From positions 1 through 42,002 of the IMG/VR virus record IMGVR_UViG_3300029171_000017: DNA of 42,002 nt. One strand, written 5' to 3'. Shown here in pieces: positions 1 to 22,052 of this stretch. The translations under genes and the position numbers were made by a program. Within the stretch, counting starts at the first letter, position 1; every line of letters begins with the position of its first letter. Source of the stretch: a virus (lineage: Duplodnaviria; Caudoviricetes). A model generated the notes under the pieces. The model saw nothing but the letters and a program-made list of their open reading frames with translations. It searched no databases and was not told the DNA's origin.

Positions 1-28
1 AGAGAGTGAGATGCACCCTCTCCTTTCC

Positions 29-889
29 CTACAAATACCCCCCAACGATCCCCCGAGACGGATCGCCATAAGTATCCACGACCTCATTCCGCTCTGCCCA
101 GTGATTGAGGAACGCCCGACAAGCATCCTCTGAGCCCATGACGTTGATTTTGCGTCGGCCGTCCGGGCCCGGGAGCCCGTCGCAAAGGACGGAAAGTCCA
201 GTGATAGCCTGAGCGTCAGGGAGTTCAGCAACTTTTCGACCACGCAAGTCACGCACGGTGACGGGGTCGGACGCACATCCCTCGCACACCGAGCGTGACC
301 AATCGTGCTCGTATGTGTGCGGCATATCTTCGACGCCAAGCAAGCATGTCACGGGCGCCGCACTGATTGTTTTTACCGCCGCTTCGATGTCGGCGGCTAC
401 GTCGGCTTCTGGCCGCCGCTGAAAGGCAGCGCGGGAACGGATCCGCCACGCCTTGAGTTCGGCGGGATCGACACCAGGGCATTTGCCCGCATAAGCGGCG
501 CCAAGGCAGTGGTCGGCAGCGGCGATAATACACTGTTCGAGGGTTGGTGGGATCACCAACAACGACAAAACCTGTCCAAGAGAGGAAGCGTCAATGTATT
601 CGGCGGGCGGGCGACCGAATCCCGGATCGCCATCATTATGGTGATCGACAACAATGTGTCGACCATATCCCGGCGCCTTGCACTCCACCCAGACCAGTGT
701 ACCGCCACCAAATGGGCGAACGAAATCACCATCGCGATCAATGATAGAGTCCGCCTTGCACGCGTTGCCCGGGTGGCAGCGCTTGCCCCCAACCGCAGCA
801 AAAGCGTACGGTTGTTCGGCGGCGGACAGGACCGCTTCGATGGCAGACATTTCGGGGTCTGATGCCCCGAGAATAAAAAGGTAGTGCAT
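29..889 (-). CDS. NrN-like DHH-family phosphodiesterase (resembles the type III CRISPR-associated SAM-AMP-degrading NrN)
   Basis: Start moved to ATG 889 (SD AGGAGG upstream; the longer track ORF runs through a terminator). Motifs LFILGASDPEM, WVEC, VVDHHN, SSLGQVLSLL, IIAAAD and C-terminal YGDPSRGIVG occur in the same order as I recall for Bacteroides NrN (LFLLGGHDLEM, GVEL, IDHHN, SALEQVASIL, LVAAND, WGGGINGFIG). Confidence 0.72.
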   Translation of the reverse strand: MHYLFILGASDPEMSAIEAVLSAAEQPYAFAAVGGKRCHPGNACKADSIIDRDGDFVRPFGGGTLVWVECKAPGYGRHIVVDHHNDGDPGFGRPPAEYIDASSLGQVLSLLVIPPTLEQCIIAAADHCLGAAYAGKCPGVDPAELKAWRIRSRAAFQRRPEADVAADIEAAVKTISAAPVTCLLGVEDMPHTYEHDWSRSVCEGCASDPVTVRDLRGRKVAELPDAQAITGLSVLCDGLPGPDGRRKINVMGSEDACRAFLNHWAERNEVVDTYGDPSRGIVGGYL

Positions 890-903
890 AAGTCTGCCTC
901 CTG

Positions 904-942
904 AAAACAAAAGACCACGTGATATCGAATCACGTGGTCTTT
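904..942 (-). terminator. Intrinsic terminator/attenuator between the Csx16-like and NrN-like genes
   Basis: Perfect 14-bp inverted repeat AAAGACCACGTGAT (910-923) / ATCACGTGGTCTTT (929-942); on the minus strand it is followed by a T-rich tract and then the AGGAGG SD. Confidence 0.65.
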
Positions 943-947
943 GAAAA

Positions 948-1250
948 TTATTCGCGAAAGCGCGCCAGCGCCGCACGGACGACCACAAATTCTTCCAACC
1001 CGACGACATGGTCATCAAGCTGGTCAAGGGTGTACGGAGTCGCCGGATGCGGCTCCGCCGCCAAGGTTACGTACGTGACCTTTTCCGCCTGCGCCGCCAG
1101 AGCAAAGTCTGGCAGCGTGGTGAAAATGTGCCTGCCTTGCACGTCGACAAACGACGCACGGGTCACCACGGGGGTACCTTGGGGGACCAGCCCCCGTTGG
1201 ATAAGATACTCCCCCAAGAAGGGGTGTTGGGAAATCACGATATACTTCAT
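948..1250 (-). CDS. Csx16-like (Cas_VVA1548 family) putative ring nuclease
   Basis: Start ATG 1250 (SD AGGAG, ATGA overlap with the upstream stop), 100 aa. IVISQHP..EYL..RG / VQGRHIFTTLP.ALAA / YTLDQL / LEEFVV follows the Csx16 pattern (VSRHP..W...G / GD.VIGTLP.HLAA / ELS.EEL / LEEY.V), with divergent core residues. Confidence 0.6.
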   Translation of the reverse strand: MKYIVISQHPFLGEYLIQRGLVPQGTPVVTRASFVDVQGRHIFTTLPDFALAAQAEKVTYVTLAAEPHPATPYTLDQLDDHVVGLEEFVVVRAALARFRE

Positions 1251-1567
1251 TGCTTTTCTCCTGTTAGGCGCGGTTTTGCGTGCGCCCAAATCTCGCAATC
1301 GCTATTTTGATGACATCCATTTTTCGACGCTAACCGAACAAATTCTGTTAGCGTCTGCCAGCAACCGCAGACCACCGGAATCCCGGTGGTAGTGCGCGTG
1401 AACAATTCCCACCGATAGACGTCAAATCGCCAATCGGTTCGATATCGTCCAGTTACCGGGACTATATCTTCTGGCTGAATGTTCCACTCCGGGAAGTTCG
1501 CCTGAAGAATTTTGGCCGCCCGTATTCGCAAGCGGCCAACGTGATGCGATCTGTTTCGCCTCATCAT
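1247..1567 (-). CDS. Hypothetical protein
   Basis: 106-aa ORF whose stop overlaps the next start codon; no recognisable family. Confidence 0.6.
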   Translation of the reverse strand: MMRRNRSHHVGRLRIRAAKILQANFPEWNIQPEDIVPVTGRYRTDWRFDVYRWELFTRTTTGIPVVCGCWQTLTEFVRLASKNGCHQNSDCEIWAHAKPRLTGEKQ

Positions 1568-1638
1568 AGTATTTTCACCAAAGCCCCTTGCGGATCATTG
1601 ATCGGCCCCATCCACGAACCTGTAGGGATTAGCATGCC

Positions 1639-1866
1639 CTACGCCGAGGGTGGGGGTGTGGTGTTGAATTGATATTTGCGAGTGTAGCAACACCCGCACG
1701 GACGACGCTCCCATTTGTATGGAAACGTCGACAATGCCTTGTGTACTAGCCGCCGCACCTCTTGATGCGGCCCCCCGTACACCCGATTTCCCTCGATTTC
1801 GAGGGAGGGGAACATCTCCAAAATTTTCTTTTGGAGGTGCTTATTCGTGACTCGGACGGATCCCAT
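1639..1866 (-). CDS. Hypothetical protein
   Basis: 75-aa ORF directly downstream of a repeat-borne SD (AAAAGGAGAGA). Confidence 0.65.
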   Translation of the reverse strand: MGSVRVTNKHLQKKILEMFPSLEIEGNRVYGGPHQEVRRLVHKALSTFPYKWERRPCGCCYTRKYQFNTTPPPSA

Positions 1867-1870
1867 TATT

Positions 1871-1924
1871 TCTCTCCTTTTAATAAACAGATCGAAATTG
1901 ACCTGTCATTATTCTTATGCCACA
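1871..1924 (-). repeat. 54-bp direct repeat, copy 1 (promoter+RBS cassette)
   Basis: Identical to 2390-2443; minus strand reads TGTGGCATAAGAATAATGACAGGTCAATTTCGATCTGTTTATTAAAAGGAGAGA, just before ATG 1866. Confidence 0.95.
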
Positions 1925-1966
1925 TTTGTTCTTCAGTATTGAATATTACAAACTAAAATTTAAGTC

Positions 1967-2012
1967 AAAAAAGAAAGGACAGAGACTTCAGAATTATCCA
2001 AAGTCTCTATCC
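1967..2012 (-). terminator. Intrinsic terminator after ORF 2020-2385
   Basis: Stem GGATAGAGACTT / AAGTCTCTGTCC followed by TTTCTTTTTT on the minus strand. Confidence 0.8.
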
Positions 2013-2019
2013 CCAATTT

Positions 2020-2385
2020 TTACTCGATCGAGAAACGGGTAGCCATCTCTTCCTGCGCCATTTTCTTCATTGACTTCAGTGACGCACACATTTTCTCCAT
2101 GAAGGTCTCGAACTGGGCGTCTGTCGACGCCAGCAACAGCTGGGCTGTTGCCTCGTTTTGACGCTCGGTGTTCTCTACCACTACACGAATGTACGCGGCC
2201 TCAGCCGAAGACAGCCCCTCTTCATCCGGGGGACTCCCCGGCATGGTACGGAGTATCTCCACCATGTACTCTTTGCCGAGGGATTTTACGAGATGCACGG
2301 CTTCCCGGCACTGTGACTCCATCGGAGCCAGCACTGCCAAAAGAAACTGGAGCATAGCTTTTTCTTGTGCTTGTGACATATTCAT
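2020..2385 (-). CDS. Hypothetical protein (helical)
   Basis: 121-aa ORF between repeat copy 2 (SD AGGAGAGAG) and a terminator. Confidence 0.75.
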   Translation of the reverse strand: MNMSQAQEKAMLQFLLAVLAPMESQCREAVHLVKSLGKEYMVEILRTMPGSPPDEEGLSSAEAAYIRVVVENTERQNEATAQLLLASTDAQFETFMEKMCASLKSMKKMAQEEMATRFSIE

Positions 2386-2389
2386 GATC

Positions 2390-2443
2390 TCTCTCCTTTT
2401 AATAAACAGATCGAAATTGACCTGTCATTATTCTTATGCCACA
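2390..2443 (-). repeat. 54-bp direct repeat, copy 2 (promoter+RBS cassette)
   Basis: Identical to 1871-1924; precedes ATG 2385. Confidence 0.95.
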
Positions 2444-2495
2444 ATTACCCCTTATTTTTGAAGGAATGAAGGACAAAAATTCTTGCTTCAAGTAG

Positions 2496-2837
2496 CTATT
2501 TTTCGCCACGTTCCAGCCGACAGACTAAGGCTGTTGCTTGTGTGTGTGCGGTAATAGCGTCGATCAACGGTCGGTTATTTTTAGGGTTAATTTTCCATGT
2601 TTTAGCCGCATCGACTATAAGACGGGCTTGACGATCTACAGCCTTTTTCGCCAACGCGATTGCGGCCCACCTTTTTATATCGTCTCGGGCCTGAGGAATC
2701 GGGGGCGCACAATACACACACCAATAAACTCCGTTTTCTAAAATCGTGGCGTTTTGTGAGCAGGGTTTCCATCGCTTTTTGGCAGTTGCGGCAGTGGCTC
2801 GTCCATTGCACGTAATTCTGATTTGCTCGGCATCCAT
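2496..2837 (-). CDS. Hypothetical protein with Cys motifs (possible Zn-binding)
   Basis: 113 aa, SD AAGGA, Cys residues in TCNG, KPCS and WCVYC. Confidence 0.6.
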   Translation of the reverse strand: MDAEQIRITCNGRATAATAKKRWKPCSQNATILENGVYWCVYCAPPIPQARDDIKRWAAIALAKKAVDRQARLIVDAAKTWKINPKNNRPLIDAITAHTQATALVCRLERGEK

Positions 2838-2846
2838 TCGGCGTCC

Positions 2847-3089
2847 TTAGTTCATGAGATTGCGGTGAAATGAGTCTGCATCAAAATTTGATTTATTCGG
2901 CGGTGCATTAATCGGGGGATTTTTGTATTCAATTAATGTCGTAACGTAGTGATGGTAATAATCCGAAAGATCGGTATCGACAGGTGGCGCACTGTTCGTG
3001 CGGATTTTGCCGTGAAGATAGTTCGCCAGGATAAATGGCCAAGCCAGTATGAATAGAGTTGCGCGGAGGACCCATTTGAAGATTTTCAC
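2847..3089 (-). CDS. Hypothetical protein with N-terminal hydrophobic segment
   Basis: 80 aa, GTG start with SD AAAGGA; WVLRATLFILAWPFILA is a likely membrane anchor. Confidence 0.55.
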   Translation of the reverse strand: MKIFKWVLRATLFILAWPFILANYLHGKIRTNSAPPVDTDLSDYYHHYVTTLIEYKNPPINAPPNKSNFDADSFHRNLMN

Positions 3090-3112
3090 CTATTTTTCCT
3101 TTGTTGTAGGTT

Positions 3113-3205
3113 AAAAAAGAACCGATCCCAGGCGAGGCAAGACAACGAACGGAGAGAGAGGAGAGGATGGGTGCCTGAGATCGGTAGTGTTTGTTTGAGT
3201 CAAAA
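3113..3205 (-). ncRNA. Candidate ~90-nt small RNA (or attenuating leader) with a pyrimidine-rich loop
   Basis: Downstream of promoter copy 3; 13-bp stem ACCGAUCUCAGGC/GCCUGGGAUCGGU (3173-3185 / 3121-3133, one U-G pair) enclosing CCAUCCUCUCCUCUCUCUCC, then UCUUUUUU. The 5' end is approximate. Confidence 0.45.
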
Positions 3206-3235
3206 TTTATCTGACATTATTATTATGACACAATT
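3200..3235 (-). promoter_or_regulatory. Third, diverged copy of the putative phage early promoter
   Basis: 30/36 identity to 2411-2446; minus strand AATTGTGTCATAATAATAATGTCAGATAAATTTTGA. Confidence 0.65.
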
Positions 3236-3278
3236 CATCGACTCATTTGCGCCGACTATCAAAATTAGAAGTTGGAAA

Positions 3279-3351
3279 TAGGGAAGGTAGGATTTGAACC
3301 TACAACCAGGCAGAATATGAGTCTGCTGCTCTACCATTGAGCTACTCCCCC
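3279..3351 (-). tRNA. tRNA with CAT anticodon (elongator Met or Ile2)
   Basis: Cloverleaf: acceptor GGGGGAG/CTTCCCT, D arm GCTC-AATGGTA-GAGC, anticodon arm GCAGA-CTCATAT-TCTGC, T arm GTAGG-TTCAAAT-CCTAC, discriminator A. No CCA directly after it; lacks the three G-C pairs of initiator tRNA. Confidence 0.9.
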
Positions 3352-3608
3352 GAAATAGTTATTTTTCGTAGTTGGGTTTCAAATCCGTGTTCTCGCAGCG
3401 CAGTACGATAATCGTCGGCAGCGGTTTTTGACGCAAATTCTCTCGGAAAGAAATATTGCCCATCTAATCGCGCCGTTACTTTCCAATAAATCTCGACGGG
3501 CGGGTCGCACCCAAGGTCTGCCATTTTTTTCGGTACGATCTCTCCATTTTCAATGACAAAAACAATTAGCCCGTTAACTTGATCGATAACGACATGCGAG
3601 ATGGTCAT
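3342..3608 (-). CDS. Hypothetical protein
   Basis: 88 aa, SD-like AGGGA; the stop codon lies inside the 5' end of the tRNA. Confidence 0.6.
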   Translation of the reverse strand: MTISHVVIDQVNGLIVFVIENGEIVPKKMADLGCDPPVEIYWKVTARLDGQYFFPREFASKTAADDYRTALREHGFETQLRKITISGE

Positions 3609-3633
3609 GCAAGGTCCCTGAACGGGAATTTTG

Positions 3634-3667
3634 AGTAATATTATCGAGAATCTTGATTTTATAGCAA
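3634..3667 (-). promoter_or_regulatory. Possible sigma70-type promoter for ORF 3342-3608 and the tRNA
   Basis: Minus strand TTGCTA-N16-GATAAT, directly after the terminator of the upstream structured RNA. Confidence 0.3.
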
Positions 3668-3668
3668 G

Positions 3669-3706
3669 AAAAAAGAAAGGGATGGGACTGCGGCGCGTCC
3701 CATCCC
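3669..3706 (-). terminator. Intrinsic terminator
   Basis: Perfect 10-bp stem GGGATGGGAC/GTCCCATCCC followed by TTTCTTTTTT on the minus strand. Confidence 0.85.
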
Positions 3707-3930
3707 TCGGTGCCGGATTTGGCTTGGTTGCCGCACGCGGCTCACGGCGCCGCTGTCACCCAGCCTTAGCCAGGTGAGTCGCACCCTCCGAGATACTAAT
3801 CTCGTTAACCCCGTTAGCCACCAACACGCGAACGAGCGGTGGCATCCGGCGATTTTAGGCTCAGAGCTGCGTAACCTGTTCTCTAACGAGAATACCCACA
3901 GACTTGTAGCGGCGATCGGCGCCGCAATTA
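3669..3930 (-). ncRNA. Candidate ~260-nt highly structured ncRNA ending in an intrinsic terminator
   Basis: GC-rich, no convincing ORF. Closing helix GCCGGAU/AUCCGGC (3844-3850 / 3712-3718) encloses four hairpins; two more hairpins lie 5' of it; a terminator follows. Confidence 0.55.
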
Positions 3931-4258
3931 AGTTTACTAGGCTGATTTTCTATAATCTTTTCTTGTGAAAGACATGATGCAGCCATCATCGGCATCATCG
4001 TCCGCGTTGAAGATTGTGTCTACAGCGCGATTTTTTATCTCACACAAAACCGAGATTACGAAATCCGCAGCCAACTTAACCAAGTCACTTTGTTGCACAA
4101 GGCTCTCCACAAAATATCTGTGGGAAGGCTGGGCGGTGTATAAAAATATATCAGTTGTTCGGCGCAGAAGTCTTACTTAGACTTCGTCGAGGTAGGCTAT
4201 TAAATAGCACTACACTATTATTGTGCCGCATAAAAGGCATATTTTTGGAGCTACCCTC

Positions 4259-4555
4259 GTGCATAATTTTGTGACTAGTTTTTTCAACGAATTAGAGAAA
4301 ATCGCAGCCCCCCAAAACAACGGCGGAGGCATGGTAGCCACTTCTCCAGTACAGCTGGAGAATCAGGAGTTGACGGAGCAGATCAATAATATCCAGCTAA
4401 AGCTCCAACTGCGTCAAATGATGCAGGCCGCCTCAGCGATGCAGGCCGCAGACCAGCAGGCACCCCAAGCGCCTCCGCAGCCGCAGATGCCGCGCCAGCG
4501 TTCACAAGGAATGCCGGTGGATCCGACCGAGATGAGCGGAGAAGAGAATGTTTAA
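4259..4555 (+). CDS. Small Gln/Pro-rich protein with FFNELEKIA motif (putative head-associated)
   Basis: Likely GTG start at 4259 after GGAG; FFxELEKIA is shared with ORF 34788-35012. Confidence 0.7.
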   Translation: MHNFVTSFFNELEKIAAPQNNGGGMVATSPVQLENQELTEQINNIQLKLQLRQMMQAASAMQAADQQAPQAPPQPQMPRQRSQGMPVDPTEMSGEENV

Positions 4556-5528: not shown

Positions 5529-6067
5529 CTCCCGTCGAGATCCTTTCTGAAGTTACTCGCTTCTTTCCGAAGGACTGGGCTCGCTTAGAGCCTGAGTTAT
5601 TTCGTGAAAAGTTCGGTAAAGACTGGACTATGTTCATGGCGATCAAGACAGTCAAAAGTCAGACGGATCTTGTTCTGTCTGACTTGGGCATCTTTGAAAA
5701 CGTAGTGATCGCTCTGTCGGGAATTGAACCTATAATTGGTCAGACACAAATTTGTCAGCCGGGGGAGATTTTATGGGCGACCTCTTTAATTGAGTTAATC
5801 ACTAAAAAAACCCCTAAAGATTATGGTCACGAAGTTCGTACCTACATTCAGGCGTGCTTTTCGGAACACGGGGTGTACGCCTATCCCGAGGAGCTAAAAA
5901 ATTTCGAGCCGGAGGACGATAAGGCCACGAAAGATCGTATCAGATCGCAGCTACAATTCGGCACTAAAGACATCGACTCGGATGATCTGATTAAAGTGCA
6001 GACGGCAAAATTAGGAAACGTTTACGCCCAGGCGGAGAGCATTGCATCTAGACTGAAGATGTTGTAG
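5525..6067 (+). CDS. Hypothetical protein upstream of portal
   Basis: ATG 5525 overlaps the upstream stop (ATGA); 180 aa. Confidence 0.75.
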   Translation: MTPVEILSEVTRFFPKDWARLEPELFREKFGKDWTMFMAIKTVKSQTDLVLSDLGIFENVVIALSGIEPIIGQTQICQPGEILWATSLIELITKKTPKDYGHEVRTYIQACFSEHGVYAYPEELKNFEPEDDKATKDRIRSQLQFGTKDIDSDDLIKVQTAKLGNVYAQAESIASRLKML

Positions 6068-6099
6068 TATCGACCCGCTTTAATTTCGGAGATTCTCCC

Positions 6100-7881
6100 T
6101 TGCCTCCAGTTTCTCAGATGCGCGGCGGTCGGCCCAGCTACCTCGGGGGATACCCGAATCCTTGGTTTGACCCCTCCTCAACTTATATCCCATCGACGAT
6201 GAAAGAGTTGTTTCGATGGTGCCATTATCTGTATTCTTCTCATAGTGAAATTGCTCCTGTAATCAATAAAAAGTGCGCCTATGTTATTACTCGATTAATT
6301 TATGATACGGAGCGCGAACGATCGAAACAGTTGTGGAAAGAGCTTTTAGAGCAGACGCTTAAAATTCGGGAGTTTGAATACAAGCTCTTACTGGATTTAG
6401 AAGTGTACGGAAATTCTTATGCTTCGATTTTGTACCCGTTTGAGCGATATTTCAAATGCACGTGCGGATATCGGTTCTTATCACGGGGACAAAAGTGGCA
6501 GTACCAAGATCATCAATTTCACAGCAAGTGTCCTAAATGCAGTCGATCAGGTATAGTTCAGCCTGAGGATGTACCGATTAGAACGCGTTTACGGGTTAAA
6601 TTAATTCGGTGGAACCCACTACATGTCGATATTCGGCATAATCCTATTACGGACCGCAGTGACTATATTTACCGCATTCCAAAGTATCTGCGGCAGCGGA
6701 TGCTTCGTCCTAAGACTAACCGCGTGTTAGTGGAGGATACACCACTAGAATTTTTGCACGCAATTCGCGACCAGAAAAATGTTCTGCTGGATCCAGCCAA
6801 TATTTACGTGTTTAAGACGCCGTCTGTCTCATCTGAAGATGACTCTTATGGCATGCCTTCTCTAACGCCTGTGTTTAAAGATGCTTGGTTGTTCCAGACA
6901 TACAAGCGGGCACAGGAGGCTGTTGCGTTAGAACACGTTCTGCCGCTCACTATTTTAGTCCCGGAAACTGCGGCGGGCGGCTTGTCCCCACACGCGAATG
7001 TAGACTTAAATGAGTGGTCTCGAAAAGTCATGTCGATCGTGCATAAGTGGCGACGGGATCAGAACTCAATCTACACGATGCCGTTTCCGATGCGGGTTGA
7101 GAATATTCGAGGAGATGCGCAGGCGCTTAATGTTTTCAATGAAATGAACCAGATTCGTCAGCAGATTGCCGGTGGTCTCGACGTGCCGCAAGAATTTATT
7201 TATGGTGGGCTAAACTGGTCGGGATCGTCTATTTCGTTGCGAGTTTTGGAAAATTTGTTTTTAAGCCGCATCGAGCGCCTAAATGACTTCTTAGAAAATT
7301 TCGTCGTACCAAAACTTCGACGATATCTCACACTCCCGAATATCGCGATTCGTCACGCAGATTTCAAAATGGCGGATGATGCCCAACAAAAAACCATTGC
7401 GATGTCGTTGCGGGCTACAAATACTATCTCTGATCGTACGACGATTGAGGAGCTGGGATTTGATGCTGACTTGGAATTCAAGCGCCGTAAGGAAGAGACG
7501 GCCGATCGACACAATGAATTGATTGCCTCCATGAAGGCGAATGCCGAGGCTACCGGTATTTCGACATCGGTGCAGGCGAAGTATCAGGGCAAAGCGATGA
7601 TGAGTCAGTATTCAACTCCAATGGCAAAAACGGCAGCCGGAGAGGGATCGTCCGCGCCAATGACTCCTATGCTCTTATCCCTCATGGCACATCATTTTAT
7701 TAAGAAGCCCGGCTCGCCGATGGAGAAAGAGATTGAACTGGACCAGCTTTCTCAAACTAATCCAAAATTGGTTCAGGCAATTCGATCACGGCTAAAACTA
7801 ATTAAAAATCAGGGTTCAGATAAATATCTGAAGCCGCTTCCTGAGCAGAAGGCGCCGCGACGAGCGGCTTCTCCGGTGTAA
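6100..7881 (+). CDS. Portal protein with Zn-ribbon insertion
   Basis: 593 aa; portal-like motifs LDLEVYGNSY, YGMPSL, IAGGLDVPQEFIYG and ISDRTTIEELGFD; inserted CTCG...CPKC. Confidence 0.8.
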   Translation: MPPVSQMRGGRPSYLGGYPNPWFDPSSTYIPSTMKELFRWCHYLYSSHSEIAPVINKKCAYVITRLIYDTERERSKQLWKELLEQTLKIREFEYKLLLDLEVYGNSYASILYPFERYFKCTCGYRFLSRGQKWQYQDHQFHSKCPKCSRSGIVQPEDVPIRTRLRVKLIRWNPLHVDIRHNPITDRSDYIYRIPKYLRQRMLRPKTNRVLVEDTPLEFLHAIRDQKNVLLDPANIYVFKTPSVSSEDDSYGMPSLTPVFKDAWLFQTYKRAQEAVALEHVLPLTILVPETAAGGLSPHANVDLNEWSRKVMSIVHKWRRDQNSIYTMPFPMRVENIRGDAQALNVFNEMNQIRQQIAGGLDVPQEFIYGGLNWSGSSISLRVLENLFLSRIERLNDFLENFVVPKLRRYLTLPNIAIRHADFKMADDAQQKTIAMSLRATNTISDRTTIEELGFDADLEFKRRKEETADRHNELIASMKANAEATGISTSVQAKYQGKAMMSQYSTPMAKTAAGEGSSAPMTPMLLSLMAHHFIKKPGSPMEKEIELDQLSQTNPKLVQAIRSRLKLIKNQGSDKYLKPLPEQKAPRRAASPV

Positions 7882-8347: not shown

Positions 8348-11300
8348 ATGCTGGATGTTGAGTCACAATTTCCCCGATTGCTGGATCGAGTGGAGGCGCT
8401 GGTTAAAGGCGTTTTTCCGATTAAGTCTCGTCAGCACTTAATCACAGCCAGTAATTGGCGTTGGGATAATTTGGGGAATTCTGTTCGTGACGATTTAGTG
8501 CGGCATCGACAAGCAAAACTCCGGGAGGAGTCGATCACCGCTAAATTGCTGGCGGATGTTCGAATTTCGGAAATTACGAGTGGGAAAGTAGTTGATCAAG
8601 TTTCCGGATACATCCTTCTTCGCGTACCGCACATCACCGCTCGAAGTTCTTATATTGTTAATGGCAAAGAGCTACAAACAATTAATCAGCTGAGGCTTCG
8701 TCCAGGTCTCTACACCCGTCTGACGGCAGACAACAACGTAGAGACTTTCGTCAACACGTCTGCTTCGGGAACTTACAGAGTTATTCTGGATCGCGAAACG
8801 GGCAAGTTTATTTTTCGGGTCGGTACTAGTGCCCACTTTCCTTTACCGGTGATCTTGCGAGTCTTAGGCGTTTCTGATTCTGAAATGCACAACGCCTGGG
8901 GCGCCGACATTTATAAAAGTTCTGTGGAGAAAGTGGAGCAAGGGCATCAGGTAATGAAGCTCATTGCGAAGCTACGCCCGAATTTAAAAGTCTCCACGCC
9001 GGAAGAGGCTTCCAAATTAATTGCTACATTTTTCGAATCAAAACCATTTGATCCGAAGGTTAACTCCATTACTCTTGGAACACCGTTCGCGGCAATTTCA
9101 GGACCTGCATTGCTGGCCTCTTCAAAGAAATGCTTGGAGGTGTCTAGGGGAAAATCGCCTACAGACGATACGGAAAGTCTGGCATTTAAGAGTCTTCATT
9201 CTGTAGAAGATTTTGTGCCTGAGCGTCTGGAGCGAGTACTTCCGAGTGCCGTGTTCGAGATTAAGCAGAAAGTCGATCGTACTCCTAAGGTGAGCACGGC
9301 TATTCCGGCTGACATATTTACGAAATCCGTGCAGTCATTTTTCACAACTAGTGAATTTGCCCGTCACGTAGATCAATCTAACCCGGTGGATATGATTGGG
9401 GCTAATTTTTTAACTACCACTATGGGTGAGGGTGGTATCGGATCAGAACACGCAGTCACCGACGCGGTGCGCCTGGTTCATCCTTCACATGCTGGAGTGT
9501 TGGATGGAATTCAAACTCCTGAAGGTCAGAAAATCGGTATTACGGGTCACCTAACTGTCGCGGCAAAAAAAGTCGGTAACGATATTCATATTCCGGTCAT
9601 TGACGCGAAGACTGGTCAGAAGAAAAGTATGAATGTTAAAGATTTGGACACGAAAGTTATTGCGTTTCCAGATCAATATGATCTGACAAAGACACCGCCG
9701 AAAGCATTATTTTCGACGGTGAAAGCTCGCAAACAATCGGACTTGAAAACTTTCCCTGCGAAATCGGTGGAATATATTTATTCAAGTCCGCAATCATTTT
9801 TTAGTTCGACCTCGAACATGGTGCCTTTTCTGCACAACGATGACGGTAATCGAGTCGGTATGGCTGACCGACACATTGAGCAGACTATCGGGCTTAAAAA
9901 TCCTGATGTTCCGCTCGTGCAAGCTCGTTATGGTCTTAAAGGTTACGAGGAGGTGATCGGATCTGGTGTAAATCCCAAAAGCCCAGTTAATGGGACAGTG
10001 CGTAAAATCACTGATGAAGGGATTTACATCTCAGATGGCAGAAAAGCGCACCGTGTTCCTTTACACAACATGTATCCGCTAAATTCTGATGGATTCATGC
10101 ACGATACCCCCACTGTAGCGGTAGGTGATAAGGTTACAGCTGGGCAGGCCGTGGCTAATAATAATTTCACCAAGAACGATTCTTTGGCGCTGGGTAAGAA
10201 TCTACGTACGGCGTTTATCCCATATAAGGGATACAATTTTGAAGACGGTATTGTCATTTCCCAATCTGCCGCAGAGAAACTCACATCAATTCATAAGTAC
10301 GAACACAAATTAGAAAAAGGCTCCGACACTAAGGTGGGCCTGAAGCTTTTATTGGCGCATTTTCCTGATCAGCAGAAGACCGTGTCTGACAAGAAAAAAT
10401 ATGACACAGACGGTGTGATTAAACCTGGCGCCACGATTAATTACGGGGAGTTACTCATCCCGGCAGTGCGCAAACAGGTTTTCCATGCAGATTACGACTA
10501 CAAAAAACTGCATAACGCTCTTTCGAATCAGTGGATTGATGTGTCTATTTATTGGGATAATGCACATCCAGCTCAGGTAGTTGACGTGGTTAAAACCCAT
10601 CAATTCGTCAAGATTATCACAAAGAGTGAGGAGCCCGCACAAATTGGGGACAAGCTGTCGGGCCGTCACGGTGGTAAAGGAATTATCACACTTATTATTC
10701 CAGATGGTGAGATGTATCGGGACGGTAATGGCGAGACTATCGATCTGTTGTTTAATCCTACCGGAACCGTAGGCCGCGTAAATCCGGGCCAGCTGTATGA
10801 AGCTGCGGCCGGTAAAGCAGCGCGGGTGTCAGGGAAGACGCACTATGTTAAAAATTTCGAGGCAGGATCTACTTTAGATAAGGTCAAAAAGACCCTGTCG
10901 GCAGCCGGACTGGATCCGCATGGGGAAGAGAAAATCACTGACCCTACCACGGGGCGAGTTATCCCGAATGTTTTAGTGGGTGACATGCACTTTTTGAAAC
11001 TGCGACATCGAGTCGCGAAGAAGTTCTCTGCCAGGGGATACGGTGGTGAGTATACCATCAACGAGCAGCCTGCGAAAACGGATGAAGGTTCGGCTCAGCG
11101 TATCGGTGGACTTGATCTGTACGCTTTATTATCAGGTGGCGCGACAAATTTTGTCAATGACGCCTTCATGATTAAAGGGCAAAAAAACGACGCATATTGG
11201 AGAGCTATTCAGTTAGGACTCCCCGCGCCTGCCCCGGCAGCTCCCTACGTGTCCGAGAAGTTTACGACTTTTCTGCGCGGAGCTGGGATTGATTTGACAC

Positions 11301-14300
11301 GTAAAGGTGACCTAATTCAGGCGTCGCCGATGACTGATGCGAAAGTGCTCTCTTTGTCGAGAGGTGAGATTAAAGAGCCGTCTGTGGTGACAGCCACCGA
11401 CCTCAAACCAGAGAAAGATGGGTTGTTTGATCCCGCAGTGACTGGAGGAATTGGCGGGGAACACTACGCCCATATCGCGCTTCCAGAGGCAATTGTCCAT
11501 CCTTTAATGTGGCGAGCAGTGGCCTCGGTATCGGAAATGTCCGAGAAGGATTTAAAGCAAGTCTCGGAGGGGGCTCTGGGTATTAAGGACGGGAAGTTGG
11601 TGTCTTCTAAAGAGCCAGGTGCTGTGACCGGCGGTGACGGAATTCGAAAGATGCTGGCTAACATTAATGTCGACAGTGAATTGCGTAAAATTGATATCCA
11701 GTATAAAACTACTAAATCGGTTATGAAAAAAGATCATCTGGCTAGACGCCGTCGATTTTTAGAGTCGCTAAAACACCTGTCGCTCTCCCCAGCTGACGCT
11801 TACACCATTAAGAACGTTTCAGTAATTCCGCCGAAATTTCGCGCCATTTATCCTCTGCCGGACGGAGCACTTAATGTCTCTGACGCTAACCACGGATACC
11901 GCGAAATTCTGATGGTCAGCAACGCCCTCAAAAATCTGAAAAACATTAAAGTTGATGATGCTATTCTGGGCGGACTGCGCCGTGACCTAAATAACTCTGT
12001 TGGCGGCCTGGTTGGTACTCAAGAACCGATTACTCGGAGTTCGTACTTTAAAGGGTTTATGGCGACAATCAAGGGCGCTTCGAATAAGCACGGACTGTTT
12101 CAAGGTCGTGTTATGTCGCGTCCACAAGACCTTTCGGCCCGATCGACAATTATTCCGGATCCAAAATTTGGTATTGATGAAGTCGGTATTCCCGAAAAAA
12201 TGGCGCTGACTCTGTACAAGCCTTTCGTGGTTCGTCGGTTAGTAGGCTTAGGCTATCCGCCCCTCGAAGCTCGGGAAATGACTGAGACGGGCGCCGAAAT
12301 GGCGATGAAGGCGTTACACGTCGAAATTAAAGATCGTCCACTGGTACTAAATCGGGCGCCGTCACTACACAAGTTTAGCATGCTCGGGCTAAAGCCGACT
12401 TTGGTGTCTGGTGAGGCTATTAAGATTAATCCGCTAATTGTGTCTGGTCTTAACGCAGACTTTGACGGCGATACGATGGGTGTTCATGTACCGGTAACAG
12501 AAGCGGCCCGAAAAGAGGTTATTGAAAAAATGATGCCTTCTCGGAACTTGTTTTCTCCGGCCAGTGGTCGAGTGGTAAATCAGCCGACGATGGAAACAGT
12601 TCTCGGATTGTACTTGATGTCTAATCCCGTAGGGACTCCAATTGCTGTAGCCTCTGAAAAAGAAGCGATGGCGAAGTATGAGTCCAAGGCGATTGAAGTA
12701 AACGCTGCGCTGAAGATCGGTAATCGCGCTACGTGTGTTGGCCAAATTCTGCTTAATAGGGTTATTCCATCATATGCCCAAATTGACGGGCCGATGACTA
12801 AGAAAGTCATGAGTTCGACAATTGAAACTGTGGCGAAGAAAGATCCGAGTTTTGCTGCCGAGATGATGAATAAGTTGAAGGACTTAGGTAATCACTATGT
12901 TACCGAGGTTGGCTTCTCGGTTAGTTTGCGTGATTTGCATATCGACACGAAAAAGAGAGATAAAATTCTTTCGGACGCGGATAGACGAACAAAAGTCGTG
13001 GGATTCTCGAAAGCCTCAGAAGAGGCAGCTAAGCGAATTTCGGATTTAGTTCATAGTGATAAAGATAATCGTTTCGTGGTAATCTCTACTGGCTCAGGAG
13101 CACTAGGTGGTAAGGCCGGTTCAGTTAACCGGTTACTCGCGACTCCAGTAGCTGTAACCGATCATCGTGGTGTCCCCATTCCTGTTCAAATTAAAAAATC
13201 CTACGCCGAAGGTCATGACTTAGGATCCTACTGGGCCACGCTGCCCGGTGCCCGTAAAGGTATGATGGATAAAGGACTATCTACAGCAGACACGGGATAT
13301 TTGACCAAGCGGTTGGTTCAAGCCAATATTGATACCATCATTTCCGAGACCGATTGTCGGACTACCCGAGGAGTGACGTTAGAACCGGGTAGTCAGGATT
13401 TAGTTGGTCGGGTGGTTGTTAACACACCAGCTCAAGGCTCAATTGCCAATCATATAATCACCCCGGACATTGCGAAAAATCTAAATAAGGCCGTAATGGT
13501 ACGGAGCCCTTTAACTTGCCAGTCTCGTCGGGGTATTTGTGCGCGATGTTTTGGTCTTAACGAAAACGGTCAATTTTATCCGATTGGATTTCATATCGGC
13601 ACGTTAGCGGCTCAGACAATTGGTGAACCCTCTACTCAACTTTCGCTTAAGGCTTTTCATGTCGGTGGCGCGGTTGGCCAAGGTGCAACCAATAAAGGGT
13701 TTAATCGAGTCGATCAGATATTCACCCTGCCGGATAATGTGAAAGGTCGAGCGGTATTATCGGCAGAGACAGGTGCTATCTCTTTTGTGGAGCGCAGCCC
13801 TCTGGGCGGTTGGAACGTATTTGTCAATAAAGCAAAGCATTATATCCCCAATGAATTAGGATTTTCTAAGCGATTGGGTGATAAGGTAAAGGCAGGAGAT
13901 CAGCTTTCGGAAGGCGGGTCTATTCGGCCTCAGGACGTGTTACAGACTACAGGCGACATTAATAAAGTCCGCGACGTGCTTATTAGCGAATTAGATGATA
14001 ATTTCCGATCATCTGGAGTTGCGATTAAACGCCGGATTTATGAAACGGTCGTTAAACCCATGACCCGGTTTGCAAAAGTCACCGACAGCGGTAGCGCTCG
14101 GGATTTTCACGCAGGTGACGTAATTTCAGTAGATCGAATTGAGCAACACAACAGCACGGCCCTGAAAGGAGGGATGGTGCAGTATGAGCCTATGTTAGTT
14201 GGTGTAGGTAAGGTTCCGCATTTAGGTGAAGATTTTGTTGGACGAATGATGCACGATCGAATTATTGATACAGCGCGAGAAGCCGTGACATTAGGTCGAA

Positions 14301-14401
14301 AAACCAATATCGGCAGCACCGGCCACCCTGTTTCTCATCTGGCGTTTCTTGGCTCAAAAAATAATCTGCAACCTATACTCCCGCCTAACAAATCGAAGTA
14401 A
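8348..14401 (+). CDS. rpoBC: Phage DNA-directed RNA polymerase, fused beta-beta' single polypeptide
   Basis: Beta motifs: YIVNGKE, QTPEGQKIG, GYNFEDGIVIS, GDKLSGRHGGKG (10646), LKLRH, AQRIGGLD. Beta' motifs: KPEKDGLFD, VIPPKFR, LNRAPSLH, catalytic NADFDGD (12452-12472), TADTGYLTKRL, RSPLTC...ICARCFG, AQTIGEPSTQL. Confidence 0.96.
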   Translation: MLDVESQFPRLLDRVEALVKGVFPIKSRQHLITASNWRWDNLGNSVRDDLVRHRQAKLREESITAKLLADVRISEITSGKVVDQVSGYILLRVPHITARSSYIVNGKELQTINQLRLRPGLYTRLTADNNVETFVNTSASGTYRVILDRETGKFIFRVGTSAHFPLPVILRVLGVSDSEMHNAWGADIYKSSVEKVEQGHQVMKLIAKLRPNLKVSTPEEASKLIATFFESKPFDPKVNSITLGTPFAAISGPALLASSKKCLEVSRGKSPTDDTESLAFKSLHSVEDFVPERLERVLPSAVFEIKQKVDRTPKVSTAIPADIFTKSVQSFFTTSEFARHVDQSNPVDMIGANFLTTTMGEGGIGSEHAVTDAVRLVHPSHAGVLDGIQTPEGQKIGITGHLTVAAKKVGNDIHIPVIDAKTGQKKSMNVKDLDTKVIAFPDQYDLTKTPPKALFSTVKARKQSDLKTFPAKSVEYIYSSPQSFFSSTSNMVPFLHNDDGNRVGMADRHIEQTIGLKNPDVPLVQARYGLKGYEEVIGSGVNPKSPVNGTVRKITDEGIYISDGRKAHRVPLHNMYPLNSDGFMHDTPTVAVGDKVTAGQAVANNNFTKNDSLALGKNLRTAFIPYKGYNFEDGIVISQSAAEKLTSIHKYEHKLEKGSDTKVGLKLLLAHFPDQQKTVSDKKKYDTDGVIKPGATINYGELLIPAVRKQVFHADYDYKKLHNALSNQWIDVSIYWDNAHPAQVVDVVKTHQFVKIITKSEEPAQIGDKLSGRHGGKGIITLIIPDGEMYRDGNGETIDLLFNPTGTVGRVNPGQLYEAAAGKAARVSGKTHYVKNFEAGSTLDKVKKTLSAAGLDPHGEEKITDPTTGRVIPNVLVGDMHFLKLRHRVAKKFSARGYGGEYTINEQPAKTDEGSAQRIGGLDLYALLSGGATNFVNDAFMIKGQKNDAYWRAIQLGLPAPAPAAPYVSEKFTTFLRGAGIDLTRKGDLIQASPMTDAKVLSLSRGEIKEPSVVTATDLKPEKDGLFDPAVTGGIGGEHYAHIALPEAIVHPLMWRAVASVSEMSEKDLKQVSEGALGIKDGKLVSSKEPGAVTGGDGIRKMLANINVDSELRKIDIQYKTTKSVMKKDHLARRRRFLESLKHLSLSPADAYTIKNVSVIPPKFRAIYPLPDGALNVSDANHGYREILMVSNALKNLKNIKVDDAILGGLRRDLNNSVGGLVGTQEPITRSSYFKGFMATIKGASNKHGLFQGRVMSRPQDLSARSTIIPDPKFGIDEVGIPEKMALTLYKPFVVRRLVGLGYPPLEAREMTETGAEMAMKALHVEIKDRPLVLNRAPSLHKFSMLGLKPTLVSGEAIKINPLIVSGLNADFDGDTMGVHVPVTEAARKEVIEKMMPSRNLFSPASGRVVNQPTMETVLGLYLMSNPVGTPIAVASEKEAMAKYESKAIEVNAALKIGNRATCVGQILLNRVIPSYAQIDGPMTKKVMSSTIETVAKKDPSFAAEMMNKLKDLGNHYVTEVGFSVSLRDLHIDTKKRDKILSDADRRTKVVGFSKASEEAAKRISDLVHSDKDNRFVVISTGSGALGGKAGSVNRLLATPVAVTDHRGVPIPVQIKKSYAEGHDLGSYWATLPGARKGMMDKGLSTADTGYLTKRLVQANIDTIISETDCRTTRGVTLEPGSQDLVGRVVVNTPAQGSIANHIITPDIAKNLNKAVMVRSPLTCQSRRGICARCFGLNENGQFYPIGFHIGTLAAQTIGEPSTQLSLKAFHVGGAVGQGATNKGFNRVDQIFTLPDNVKGRAVLSAETGAISFVERSPLGGWNVFVNKAKHYIPNELGFSKRLGDKVKAGDQLSEGGSIRPQDVLQTTGDINKVRDVLISELDDNFRSSGVAIKRRIYETVVKPMTRFAKVTDSGSARDFHAGDVISVDRIEQHNSTALKGGMVQYEPMLVGVGKVPHLGEDFVGRMMHDRIIDTAREAVTLGRKTNIGSTGHPVSHLAFLGSKNNLQPILPPNKSK

Positions 14402-14406
14402 GATGG

Positions 14407-15582
14407 TTGATTATGATTGAATGCGGCACAGTTCGTGAGTTTGACTCTGATAAAAATGTGTACATCGTCAACCTTGATCGAACTGGTGACGTAATTTCTC
14501 GCGCCATTGTTTCGGGGGCGGAACGTCCGTATCAGATATTATCTCGGGTCGTGTGCGTTCGAGTTGTGGGGTTAGACTGGGCAATAATTGGGGAGGTTTC
14601 TCAGCCGCAGCCGTTGCCGGGAGACAGTCGTCCAAAAACACTAGACGAGACGATTGCTGAATTCGACTCGACCCTTCGAGATACACGAATTTCGAATCGA
14701 GCTGCGGACTTACCGAATTTTCGAGAAATCGGTGCTGATGTTCTCGTGACAGGTGACGCCTCGTTAGAGAATAAAACACTTAATCCCCGAACACGCAGTC
14801 GAGTTAAAGTATTCTCACACGGCTCGATCTTATCTTTCGCTTCCAATTTATGCTTTACGTTATGGCACCGATTAACTGGCCTGATGGTTACCCAGTGCCG
14901 AAGCTGGATCTTGCGGACAATCGGCTACGAGTTTTCGGTCTCAGCCAGCGTCGATAGTCCGCGATTAGTTAAGCGAACAGTGGTGCAAGCCAACCCTTTA
15001 CCAAGTCAGCAAGCCTCGAATTCATTGCCGTTAATCGATCGAGAAACGATCGAAGGATTTATCCCGTCTCCTGATGATACTTACGCAAAATCAGCGTCTG
15101 AAATAGCTGAGCATCCCAAAGCTCGTCGAGGAATTCGGCTTAATCAGTTCGATTATTTATTCGTTGAGGCTGATAACAATCAACAAACTGTACGTTTGCG
15201 ACTTGATAAAATTGAACGAGATGACACCGGAAAGATTACGTCTCGGGTTAATCAGGTCGTTAAAACAATTGGTCGGGTTAGAGATGATGGGGTTACGTTC
15301 AATGACGGACATTATGAAACTTGGGGGGATTGGGCAGAAATAAGCATTAACGCTACCGATAAGATTATTCGAATCAAGCACGTGGAATCCAGTCAGGTAC
15401 TCGAAATCGCGGCGGCGGGTATCACGATGAGTCGGCAAGACCAGTCGATTGTCATGGATGATTCCGGTGTCACAATTAAAGCGAAGAATTTTCGTGTTGA
15501 GGCCGTTGACGATATTGTGGAAATCGCCGGTAAGCTACATTTATCCGAAGGCAACATAGTCGATCACAAGGCGCCTGGATAA
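14407..15582 (+). CDS. Baseplate central spike (gp5/gpV-like)
   Basis: N-terminal OB-fold-like start ([20 protein letters not shown]), C-terminal beta-helix-like strands ([20 protein letters not shown]), PAAR gene nearby. Start may be ATG 14413. Confidence 0.6.
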
Positions 15583-16718
15583 TGGGTTTTCGCGATAAAA
15601 AACCAGTTCAGCGAACTAAAAATAATTCTCCCGATCGTTCTGTTCGAGGAGACATTCCCGTATTTCAAGAGGCGGACGGAACTTTAGGTAGTTCTGGACT
15701 TCGTCCCGATCAATTACTATCTGAGATACAGATCCAGCAGCGCGGCGATCTTTTAATCGGTCTCAAGGATAATCAGGTCGGCATTCTTCCGGTCGGACAG
15801 CCGGATCAGATTCTTGTGGTTAATCCACTGTCCCCTGTTGGTGTATCGTGGGAAGATATAGACATTGGTGCAGGATCGCAGGGTCCACAAGGTCCGGTAG
15901 GTCCTCCCGGTCCTCCCGGTAATCCGGGAACTGATGGTGACGAAGGTCCTCCCGGCCCTCCTGGAATGCCTGGTCTCGCTGGTGCGCCTGGACCGGCAGG
16001 ATCAACTGGCGATACGGGACCCGCAGGAGCTGACGGTCAGGTAGGACCACCTGGCGAAGACGGTGTCGCCGGGTTAGAAGGTCTTCCAGGATTGCCGGGG
16101 CGTCCGGGAAACAGTCCGACAGCGTTCTATGAATTTTCCTCCGACACCTCTTCGACCGACCCCGGAACTGGGGTACTTAAGTTCAATTCGGCGATACTTA
16201 GTAACGTAGATGAGCTATTTTTTAATAACTACACCAAAGAATTGTGGGATTTAGCGGATTTTTATAAAGGACTGGATGATTCATCTCCGTATGGAGCCAT
16301 AATTTATATTACTGACACTACGGATCGATCTAATTTTCTTGTATTTCACGTCTCGACAGCTATTGATAGCTCTGGATGGAATATTTTTGAAGGAGCCATT
16401 ATTGCGTTCGGGGGTACGTTTATCAACGGAATGATATTGTCTGTAGGGTTTTCGTTGCACACAGCAATAACGTTTTCGGCCAGTAGTCGAATTTTAGCTC
16501 GTATCACTTCTGGCGCAGGTCCAGCAGAAGAAGCTACGGGAGCCCAAGTTACCGCGATTCTTTCGAATTTTGTTGGTGATTCCGGAGCAGGTGGGACAAA
16601 AGGGTTGGTGCCTGCTCCCGCTTCCGGGGATGCGGCGAAGGATGCTGTGTTGTCCGCAGATGGAAGCTGGAAAAGTATGCAAGCATTTGTTCTGAGTCGT
16701 GTGTTTTTGTTGGGGTAG
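15582..16718 (+). CDS. Collagen-like fibre protein
   Basis: 27 contiguous Gly-X-Y triplets; fibre-type motifs RGDLLIG...[10 protein letters not shown] and [13 protein letters not shown]...LSADGSW. Confidence 0.85.
15873..16115 (+). repeat. Collagen Gly-X-Y repeat (27 triplets)
   Basis: [12 protein letters not shown] ... GLP GRP GNS, uninterrupted. Confidence 0.95.
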
Positions 16719-18694: not shown

Positions 18695-19012
18695 GTGGTA
18701 ATGAAACGAATTTACGGGCCGACAGCAGCGCCAACCTCGCCCACAACCCTTTACACGGTGCCTGCCGGAGTATCCGCCACGTTGCGACATATTCATATTC
18801 AAAACCCTGGCGGCGGCTCGTCCCGAACTATCACCATGTCGATCGGTGCGGACGCAGCGGGTACGCGCATTCTGGACACTTACGCAATTGCTGCGGGTTC
18901 TTATTTATCACTCTACGGCCCGTTTATTTTAGCGGCGGGCGAAGTATTGCAGGCCACAGCCAGTAATGCCGCTTTAGTCATAACGATTGCCGGGGAATTG
19001 ACAGCTGTATGA
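18695..19012 (+). CDS. Small beta-rich virion protein
   Basis: 105 aa; TTLYTVPAG...LRHIHIQN resembles the N-terminal domain of the two paralogs (TLFAAPGS...IKSIFIYN). Confidence 0.65.
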   Translation: MVMKRIYGPTAAPTSPTTLYTVPAGVSATLRHIHIQNPGGGSSRTITMSIGADAAGTRILDTYAIAAGSYLSLYGPFILAAGEVLQATASNAALVITIAGELTAV

Positions 19013-19290
19013 GATCCATTCAGACAAATAATGGTCCAATATCTTGTGGAGATACCCAGAGAGCGGACCGTCGAGTGCGAATTAATGGTCGTCCTATCGT
19101 GATTGTTGGTGATCTATCTGAAGGTCATGAAGGATTTCCGCCGACTCCCGCGATTGAGGGACATAAAAGTGTTTTAGTAAATGGCGTGCCGATTGTTTGT
19201 TTTGGCGATAGGTATGCTAATCATAGTAACGGATCTGCTACTCACACAGATCGACGCGCAGTTGAGGTTACTGGTGTAAGGGCCGGGTGA
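19009..19290 (+). CDS. PAAR-repeat spike tip protein (T4 gp5.4-like)
   Basis: VRINGRPIVIVGD..EGH..FPP.PAIEG..SVLVNGVPIVCFGD...H: PAAR-type repeats with metal-binding His residues. Confidence 0.88.
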   Translation: MRSIQTNNGPISCGDTQRADRRVRINGRPIVIVGDLSEGHEGFPPTPAIEGHKSVLVNGVPIVCFGDRYANHSNGSATHTDRRAVEVTGVRAG

Positions 19291-21007: not shown

Positions 21008-22052
21008 ACCCGCGTCGCCAGCGTGGCTGACTTATCAGGAAATTTTGAATCGTTACAATCTGTCGATGGCGACAGTTCAAAAATTTATTAGTCGTGGCTT
21101 ATTATCGTCGTGGACTCCTAAAACTGAGAATGGTGTTTCTCAGTATCTTATCACTGAAGCCAACGATTTTATTCTAAGAATGGGGGCTGCCTGTCCTTAT
21201 TCGATACGTGGATATAAGCCACCATTTTTACGATTTCTTTTGCTGAAGTTTCTCTCACTGACAGATGAGCAAATTCTATTGGACATGGCCAGCCGACGAA
21301 TTGGTGGGCGAAGTTTGTCCGTCGAATCACTGTCGGCCCTAAGACGAGGACTGGCTGACAGCTTGCCTGAGTCTGTTCGTCCTTTTTTGACGGGTGTTTT
21401 GCCGAAAACCGCTGAAGATATGGATAGATTAGAAATCTATACGGTGGTGGCCGGAGTACAGACTGCTTATCGAAATCCTGAAATTCTGGATCAGTTTTAT
21501 TTCATCTCTGAGGACCAAGGACATTACTTCACCCAGGTTTCAATGACCGGCAGCGCCCCTTCTGAATGCACCCTGGCTTGTAATAATATCGCCGGGTCGA
21601 CTGTGTTTTCCGGTGTCGGCTTTCATACATTTAGACATCTTTTTGCAGATTTTCGATTTTGTAATGAAAAATCGATAAAGTGGTTCCTTCGAGGTTGCCC
21701 TCCATCACAACGAGAGTTTTATCTGATTGCCAAGACTAATCCGTTGGCATCTTATTTAGTTGAGGTAGGAGCGGAAGTCGATTTTAAGAAGTCGCTGAAG
21801 GTAGCCGGTATTCGTATGACGAGAGCTATGATAAACCAGCTTAGCGTCGGAACTCCAGACAGCATTCAGTTAGCAGTAAAATTGAGCCCAGCAATCGTTC
21901 GTTTATGCGATTTTATTGGAGAGGGTTCTTCGACCAAAGGATTACCGATGCCGATAAGAGATCTCTCGGCAGAGGCGGCACCGATCGCGGAATACGACTA
22001 CAACGAGAAGTTCCCGAACAGTGTTTCGGATGAGGCACGTCGTGCGCAATAA
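20976..22052 (+). CDS. N-terminal HTH protein, possible terminase small subunit
   Basis: SD AAGGAG; WLTYQEILNRYNLSMATVQKFISRGLL resembles an excisionase/MerR-type HTH; lies directly upstream of TerL. Confidence 0.5.
   Translation: MARKLKSKKDEPASPAWLTYQEILNRYNLSMATVQKFISRGLLSSWTPKTENGVSQYLITEANDFILRMGAACPYSIRGYKPPFLRFLLLKFLSLTDEQILLDMASRRIGGRSLSVESLSALRRGLADSLPESVRPFLTGVLPKTAEDMDRLEIYTVVAGVQTAYRNPEILDQFYFISEDQGHYFTQVSMTGSAPSECTLACNNIAGSTVFSGVGFHTFRHLFADFRFCNEKSIKWFLRGCPPSQREFYLIAKTNPLASYLVEVGAEVDFKKSLKVAGIRMTRAMINQLSVGTPDSIQLAVKLSPAIVRLCDFIGEGSSTKGLPMPIRDLSAEAAPIAEYDYNEKFPNSVSDEARRAQ

Follow-up and report, generated by a model that had tools for sequence, protein, structure and literature searches.

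An intact NrN-like phosphodiesterase gene beside an apparently eroded Csx16 homologue in a large phage: probably loose neighbours rather than a two-enzyme cassette

The window analysed here is an entire virus contig of 42,002 bases (22% complete) from a large phage that carries its own fused beta-beta' RNA polymerase, a sigma factor and portal, terminase and capsid genes, as recognised by Pfam and phage family scans. Relatives of this phage reach 155-193 kb. The left 4 kb of the contig is occupied by small minus-strand genes, the last two of which encode a Csx16 homologue and an NrN-like DHH/DHHA1 phosphodiesterase (Table 1). An initial annotation had proposed that this pair works as a combined anti-CRISPR, and its description of two adjacent, co-oriented genes is confirmed, both lying on the minus strand and each being preceded by a ribosome-binding site. 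For the NrN-like gene, a 332-aa frame opening on TTG was rejected, as it is merely the longest open frame and the relatives start at the position of ATG 889. The reported lack of cas10 also holds. Neither a Pfam scan of 41 ORFs nor tblastn gave a match to cas10, cmr, cas1, csx1 or CorA within the 42-kb contig, and a repeat search of window positions 1-4300 showed no CRISPR array. Contigs from two sequencing runs, which may be those that yielded this DNA, are identical to window positions 1-1900 and extend 8,140 bases further left; because both runs carry positions 1-1900 without difference, the eroded residues of the Csx16 homologue described below are unlikely to be assembly errors.

Table 1. 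Features of the two-gene locus and of other parts of the window
Feature	Position	Strand	Details
NrN-like DHH/DHHA1 phosphodiesterase, ORF of 286 aa	889-29	minus	ATG 889 after AGGAGG
Ribosome-binding site AGGAGG	897..902	minus	7 nt before ATG 889; from sequence
Predicted intrinsic terminator	903..942	minus	14-bp perfect stem (910-923/929-942), 5-nt loop, U-run; between the two genes
Csx16 homologue, ORF of 100 aa	1250-948	minus	ATG 1250 after AGGAG
ORF of 106 aa, function unassigned	1247..1567	minus	stop overlaps csx16 start (ATGA); no usable family or Atlas match
80-nt repeat, copy 1	1864..1943	minus	direct repeat D1, 88% alike; has a ribosome-binding site; heads unit 1866-948
80-nt repeat, copy 2	2383..2462	minus	heads gene 2385-2020
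Fused beta-beta' RNA polymerase	8348-14401	plus	single protein of 2017 aa
Collagen-repeat protein and PAAR protein	15582-16718 and 19009-19290	plus	among virion genes
Terminase large subunit	22021-25170	plus	split by an intein (LAGLIDADG domain)
Sigma-70 factor	40305-41138	minus

The hairpin predicted between the two genes has a computed energy of -26.1 kcal/mol (z -5.25, 0 of 200 shuffles) and was also returned by a terminator scan and as an inverted repeat (I6). On the question of a single transcription unit, a terminator is thus predicted between the genes, yet just 13 nt remain before the ribosome-binding site of the NrN-like gene, which makes read-through plausible. The csx16 gene is coupled to the upstream 106-aa ORF and not to the NrN-like gene. 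Judged by its position, the 80-nt repeat likely carries a promoter, and its second copy marks a modular region. The one-gene module flanked by the two copies (window 1864-2462) lies on a contig of lower depth in the two runs. The ends of this module recur on another contig with 687 different letters between them, so that repeat-flanked units are likely exchangeable promoter-gene-terminator modules. Base composition also sets the two genes apart. Each has a GC content of 59.9%, the highest among the 41 genes, whereas the contig as a whole stands at 48.6%, and the synonymous GC3 is raised with z = 5.1 and 4.9 (less so in two upstream genes, z 3.3 and 3.1). The GC-richness noted in the initial annotation, which looks foreign, is therefore upheld at the gene and codon level; the spot counts on which it had relied (41/60 and 19/60) are exact, but both are 1% extremes, reached by 7 and 6 of 700 blocks. 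Both genes are missing from all 14 related phage records, whose portal proteins are 45-62% identical and two of which are at least 90% complete.

The 286-aa protein is an intact NrN-like DHH/DHHA1 enzyme, since NrN is its best structural match and the motif residues are kept. The AF2 model has a pLDDT of 94, and its top Foldseek match is NrN of Bacteroides fragilis (9lqa, E 4e-8, TM 0.51-0.57). The VIA comparison likewise ranks NrN highest (9lq9, Z 12.8, rmsd 4.1, 209 aligned residues), the next structures being NrnA, RecJ, PggH and GdpP at Z 8.1 or below. The two-domain DHH plus DHHA1 fold is shared by every Foldseek match with E < 0.001 and by the top 20 VIA rows, all of which belong to the DHH superfamily. 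At the sequence level, direct scans of Pfam, NCBIfam and PHROGs gave no name to either the 286-aa or the 100-aa protein, and single-sequence PDB searches returned no match. A profile of the 286-aa family recovers NrN (E 8e-4) in a match that spans the first 90 residues and aligns with two CorA-linked NrN sequences at an hhalign probability of 96.7%, and PADLOC C3a116 matches the protein at E 9e-6; the NrN-like assignment of the initial annotation is in this way borne out. Residues D11, E13, E69, D82-H83-H84 and D126 are all intact. Among the 120 listed homologues, E69, D82, H83, H84 and D126 are invariant (120/120), and D11 and E13 are found in at least 90%. In a profile alignment with NrN, whose residues are known from named mutants, E13 corresponds to E21 and D82-H83-H84 to D85-H86-H87, and the family alignment suggests that D126 is likely the equivalent of D119.

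The kinship with NrN of B. fragilis (PDB 9LQ9/9LQA; PADLOC DHH_CorA, C3a116; PMC10600005) is thus expressed in a common compact DHH/DHHA1 fold, in the D-x-E, E, DHH and distal D motifs and in a C-terminal YG..G.G pattern, but the 286-aa protein falls outside the CorA-linked clade. In particular, PADLOC DHH_CorA gives E 0.053 over 24 aa, versus E 1e-67 and 6e-73 for CorA-linked members, and identity to the two CorA-linked NrN sequences is 26% (52/199 and 51/195). In a FastTree phylogeny with modest support (110 rows, two of them CorA-linked, rows shorter than 220 aa being excluded), the distance to CorA-linked NrN is 4.7-5.2, versus at most 3.8 within the family. The outgroup consists of two rows because a C3a116 search of 401 proteobacterial genomes yielded no CorA-linked copy. 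The protein falls within a group of phage and stand-alone sequences that is well removed from CorA-linked NrN, and the family conserves residues that are absent from the latter, namely G87-D88-x-G90, H127-C128, Y133, C137 and R279. By these sequence comparisons, it belongs to an unnamed sister family of NrN, a separate clade that resides on phages and plasmids. The idea that the phage captured host off-switches finds little in its favour, given that the DHH protein groups with phage and stand-alone sequences and that Csx16 is closest to viral copies.

The 100-aa protein is a Csx16 homologue. A profile built without it, with viral and plasmid Csx16 sequences among its members, scores 49 bits (E 2.5e-17) and covers 90 of 93 positions, the highest score among 2000 shuffles being 7.5, and the nearest viral Csx16 is 43% identical (phmmer E 4e-15), in agreement with the initial assignment. 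More distant models respond weakly: Pfam PF09652 (Cas_VVA1548) gives 12.6 bits, below its gathering cut-off of 25, and a profile confined to 17 proteobacterial copies scores it at 4 bits. With the Csx16/Cas_VVA1548 cA4 ring nuclease (bioRxiv 10.1101/2024.09.24.614671) the protein shares full-length homology and a small Rossmann-like fold, modelled by AF2 at a pLDDT of 88.5. Foldseek gave no match with E < 0.001 for this model, and no solved Csx16 was found for comparison. The AcrIII-1-family structure 2j6c is its second-ranking VIA match at a weak Z of 4.6 (rmsd 2.9 over 72 aligned residues), a score that unrelated folds equal; the value published for Csx16 is 4.8 (bioRxiv 10.1101/2024.09.24.614671). 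Matches of DARPins to the Csx16 profile through a GxxPxHLAA motif were rejected as chance, and a weak match in a further record (G417; E 0.005, 30 positions within a 459-aa frame) was dropped as false.

Across 16 columns conserved in at least 85% of 47 other Csx16 sequences, the 100-aa protein keeps 7, and the others keep 13-16. Three residues of the first half are replaced, R8 (47/47) by Q, H31 (45/47) by R and G44 (47/47) by T, as are R69 (47/47) by P and G70 (47/47) by A; H9, L46-P47 and the hydrophobic core are retained. The viral rows of this alignment were picked by a pattern over positions 44-53, which biases those columns, not positions 8, 31, 69 and 70. The histidine, arginine and acidic residues of Csx16 are reported to be what suggested its ring-nuclease function (PMC8284326). 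Since conserved residues including both invariant arginines are lost, cleavage of cA4 is doubtful, and turnover may be weak or gone, a judgement made from residue conservation. The active ring nuclease that had been proposed is accordingly difficult to reconcile with a protein that has lost two arginines and two glycines which are otherwise invariant, and a histidine that is nearly so.

The family of the 286-aa protein is large and mobile. It comprises 285 homologue clusters, and none of the 120 listed members has a Pfam family. The loci collected comprise 53 viral ones, 60 from genomes of scattered bacteria and 80 from metagenomes, the best out of 262 stretches; the gene is also present on 13 plasmids of 240-840 kb, where it is annotated as 'hypothetical'. 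No match to the 286-aa protein was found among 50,697 phage records, and the CorA type of NrN was found neither in these records nor, with two patterns, in IMG/VR. The 193 viral, genome and metagenome loci were counted with any duplicates included, with at least 1 kb on both sides in 111 of them and at least 3 kb on both sides in 89. CorA is found in none of the 193, the two CorA queries recovering each other at E 4e-76, and six-frame checks detected cas genes at a single locus. No widely recurring neighbour emerged from a Pfam analysis of same-strand ORFs, of which 149 lay upstream and 144 downstream. Phage copies have SSB, primase-polymerase, PD-(D/E)XK exonuclease and DNA methylase genes nearby, and plasmid copies have dUTPase, ribonucleotide reductase, uracil-DNA glycosylase and exonuclease genes. 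Indeed, on six inspected plasmids (L267-L272, from Thioalkalivibrio, Pseudomonas, Variovorax, Azoarcus and Burkholderia), four copies adjoin a nucleotide- or DNA-processing gene, and a DUF4942 gene precedes two of the six. Among 50 cellular carriers (of the 60 genome loci), one of which is an unpublished genome, five have a Cas10 match of at least 70 bits; matches below 40 bits were excluded, as an E. coli control also matched, presumably through its GGDEF domains. AcrIII-1 is found in none of 50 viral carriers and Csx16 in none of the six plasmids.

Co-occurrence of the two genes is rare. Csx16 is directly adjacent to the NrN-like gene in 0 of 193 loci and lies within the flanks of one; it occurs in one of 48 other whole viral records with an NrN-like gene (G414/L009), and the reverse count, an NrN-like gene in one of 36 Csx16-bearing virus or plasmid records, returns the same record. 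A recurrent pair is not what these counts describe. If Csx16 occurs as often as published, in 2 of 28,114 phage genomes, the naive chance of one Csx16 match in 48 is about 0.3%, and it is 5% at a rate of 1 in 1000. In L009, a winged-helix (MarR-like) HTH is fused to an intact Csx16 (5871-6620; Pfam 58 bits) 2.1 kb downstream of the NrN-like gene. The L009 copies of both genes are not the nearest relatives of those in the window, and the co-occurrence thus looks like an independent meeting rather than an inherited cassette. The second link to type III signalling comes from a Fimbriimonadaceae MAG (L094:408-10759, JAHCHO010000002.1), where a divergently oriented family member with intact motifs adjoins csx1 at the end of a type III-B locus (cmr1, cas10 with GGDD, cmr3, cmr4, cmr6, cas1 and csx1, also summarised as cmr1-6/cas1) and is followed by a PP2C phosphatase gene and then by a NERD+UvrD gene (C3a187). 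No match to CorA or Csx16 was found in the fetched locus. This member nests among viral sequences (support 0.84-0.91) and is a candidate new CRISPR off-switch. The two links, Csx16 in L009 and csx1 in L094, therefore both lead to the branch of cA4 and Csx1, and neither leads to CorA and SAM-AMP.

The explanation that we favour, tentatively and at somewhat less than even confidence, is that an intact NrN-like counter-defence phosphodiesterase lies beside a decaying Csx16, the two being separately acquired passengers in a modular accessory region. Separate acquisition is suggested because a terminator stands between the genes, both are absent from the 14 related phages and their GC content is 60% versus 49% for the contig; the equal GC of the two genes, however, would fit joint acquisition. 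The NrN-like enzyme would likely hydrolyse short adenine-nucleotide signals as counter-defence, with cyclic or linear oligoadenylates as more likely substrates than SAM-AMP. By analogy with NrN, PggH and GdpP, a small nucleotide would be clamped between the DHH and DHHA1 domains and one 3'-5' phosphodiester cut by two-metal hydrolysis, the substrate presumably being an immune signal and the downstream gene being made via terminator read-through. Provided that cA4 turnover depends on the missing arginines and histidine, the Csx16 homologue is probably no longer an efficient ring nuclease. The two genes are probably loose neighbours rather than a working two-enzyme anti-CRISPR cassette. The retained NrN fold and motifs, the mobility of the family and the two cA4-signalling links favour this explanation, as does a recorded precedent. 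MAD is a cellular enzyme. It has been described as a DHH-DHHA1 nuclease, non-specific and associated with the membrane, that degrades cA4 (cited in PMC8284326); what it shares with the protein envisaged here is a type III messenger as the target of a DHH-DHHA1 enzyme, and it is set beside the 286-aa protein by description, not by sequence. Against this stand the small number of signalling links, two among 193 loci, to which clumping by habitat or host may contribute, the low count of strong Cas10 matches in cellular carriers, the missing AcrIII-1 and Csx16 partners in viral carriers and plasmids and, in the accessible text of PMC10600005, the report that B. fragilis NrN does not cleave cA2-6 or pApA. 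The erosion of Csx16, too, is read from conservation, with H9 retained. An extension of the favoured explanation, which we consider unlikely, would make the NrN-sister family a novel kind of viral phosphodiesterase directed against type III defence, which would destroy cyclic oligoadenylate, finish ring-nuclease products or cut SAM-AMP. They would travel with Csx16 in some phages, Csx16 being redundant and hence decaying here, and on at least one occasion a type III-B locus would have taken up a member as its Csx1 off-switch, just as AcrIII-1 was recruited to become Crn2.

A less eventful history has to be weighed against counter-defence. The DHH protein may be a mobile-element nano-RNase or nucleotide-recycling enzyme that acts on pNpN, pAp or short DNA and RNA ends and serves replication without an immune role, the decaying csx16 being a chance neighbour in a variable region; we regard this as a serious possibility, if a rather doubtful one. 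The replication and nucleotide-metabolism genes around phage and plasmid copies are what it would predict, the structures that rank after NrN are NrnA, RecJ, PggH and GdpP, and most cellular carriers are without a strong Cas10 match, cas genes appearing at a single locus. It accounts less well for the closest solved relative being a dedicated signal phosphodiesterase (Z 12.8 versus at most 8.1 for nano-RNases), for two phages pairing the DHH gene with the rare Csx16 and for one copy adjoining csx1.

The model of the initial annotation, in which Csx16 would destroy cA4 and NrN would destroy SAM-AMP in one working cassette, appears very improbable as a whole, and a two-messenger cassette specifically is unlikely. 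Both homologies on which it was built hold, the catalytic residues of NrN are kept, the genes are adjacent with equal GC, a second phage has both with an intact Csx16, and there is precedent for SAM-AMP degradation by a phage. However, Csx16 here keeps fewer conserved columns than any of the 47 others, the predicted terminator splits a pair that is adjacent in none of the 193 loci, and the 286-aa protein shares little identity with CorA-linked NrN, which lacks the family-specific motifs. SAM-AMP as the substrate also sits poorly with the missing CorA link and with the E. coli assay of PMC10600005, in whose accessible text CorA immunity depends on NrN activity rather than being countered by it. 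A third possibility is that the Csx16 homologue changed its job, binding another nucleotide, serving as a sponge or aiding the DHH enzyme, with both genes in one pathway. Its full-length open frame, good ribosome-binding site and confident fold would suit such a role, as would the retained H9 and hydrophobic core and the identical sequence in two runs. Loss of both arginines should nonetheless weaken nucleotide binding, and homologue searches, profile searches and the 47-row alignment brought up no other protein with the same substitutions, although the word-indexed homologue searches, which gave one protein each for the 100-aa protein and for the Csx16 domain of L009, may have missed close relatives. 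Nothing in these searches therefore points to selection on the new residues, and we consider this change of job improbable.

Viral destruction of a type III second messenger has been described before, and the novelty claimed for the idea is thereby reduced. Csx16 has been reported in 2 of 28,114 phage genomes (bioRxiv 10.1101/2024.09.24.614671), and a phage SAM-AMP lyase has been published (bioRxiv 10.1101/2025.04.28.651013; PMC12255297), AcrIIIB4 being a candidate phage SAM-AMP lyase unconfirmed in vivo (PMC12255297). The likeness of the present locus to AcrIII-1 (DUF1874) and to the candidate AcrIIIB4 is one of concept; as described in the accessible texts, these are single genes with other folds or chemistry. 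In turn, the 100-aa protein differs from the published Csx16 in falling below the Pfam cut-off and in being without R8, H31, G44, R69 and G70. Among literature titles and abstract openings, a scope outside which most subscription journals lie, no description of a phage NrN-like phosphodiesterase or of an NrN-like/Csx16 pair was found.

The interest of the locus rests on the NrN-sister family, whose activity is putative, rather than on the gene pair. If members of this family do cut type III messengers, the unannotated proteins of its 285 clusters, several hundred from phages and megaplasmids, would become candidate anti-CRISPRs, with a fold that is not among the viral messenger-degrading enzymes of the literature compared here, and the family would show the origin of NrN specificity. 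On the side of Csx16, 32 viral loci were collected, among them 31 IMG/VR loci beyond L009 that look intact (L141-L171), which extend the two published phage cases. Csx16 was also seen on three plasmids, one of which has tandem domains.
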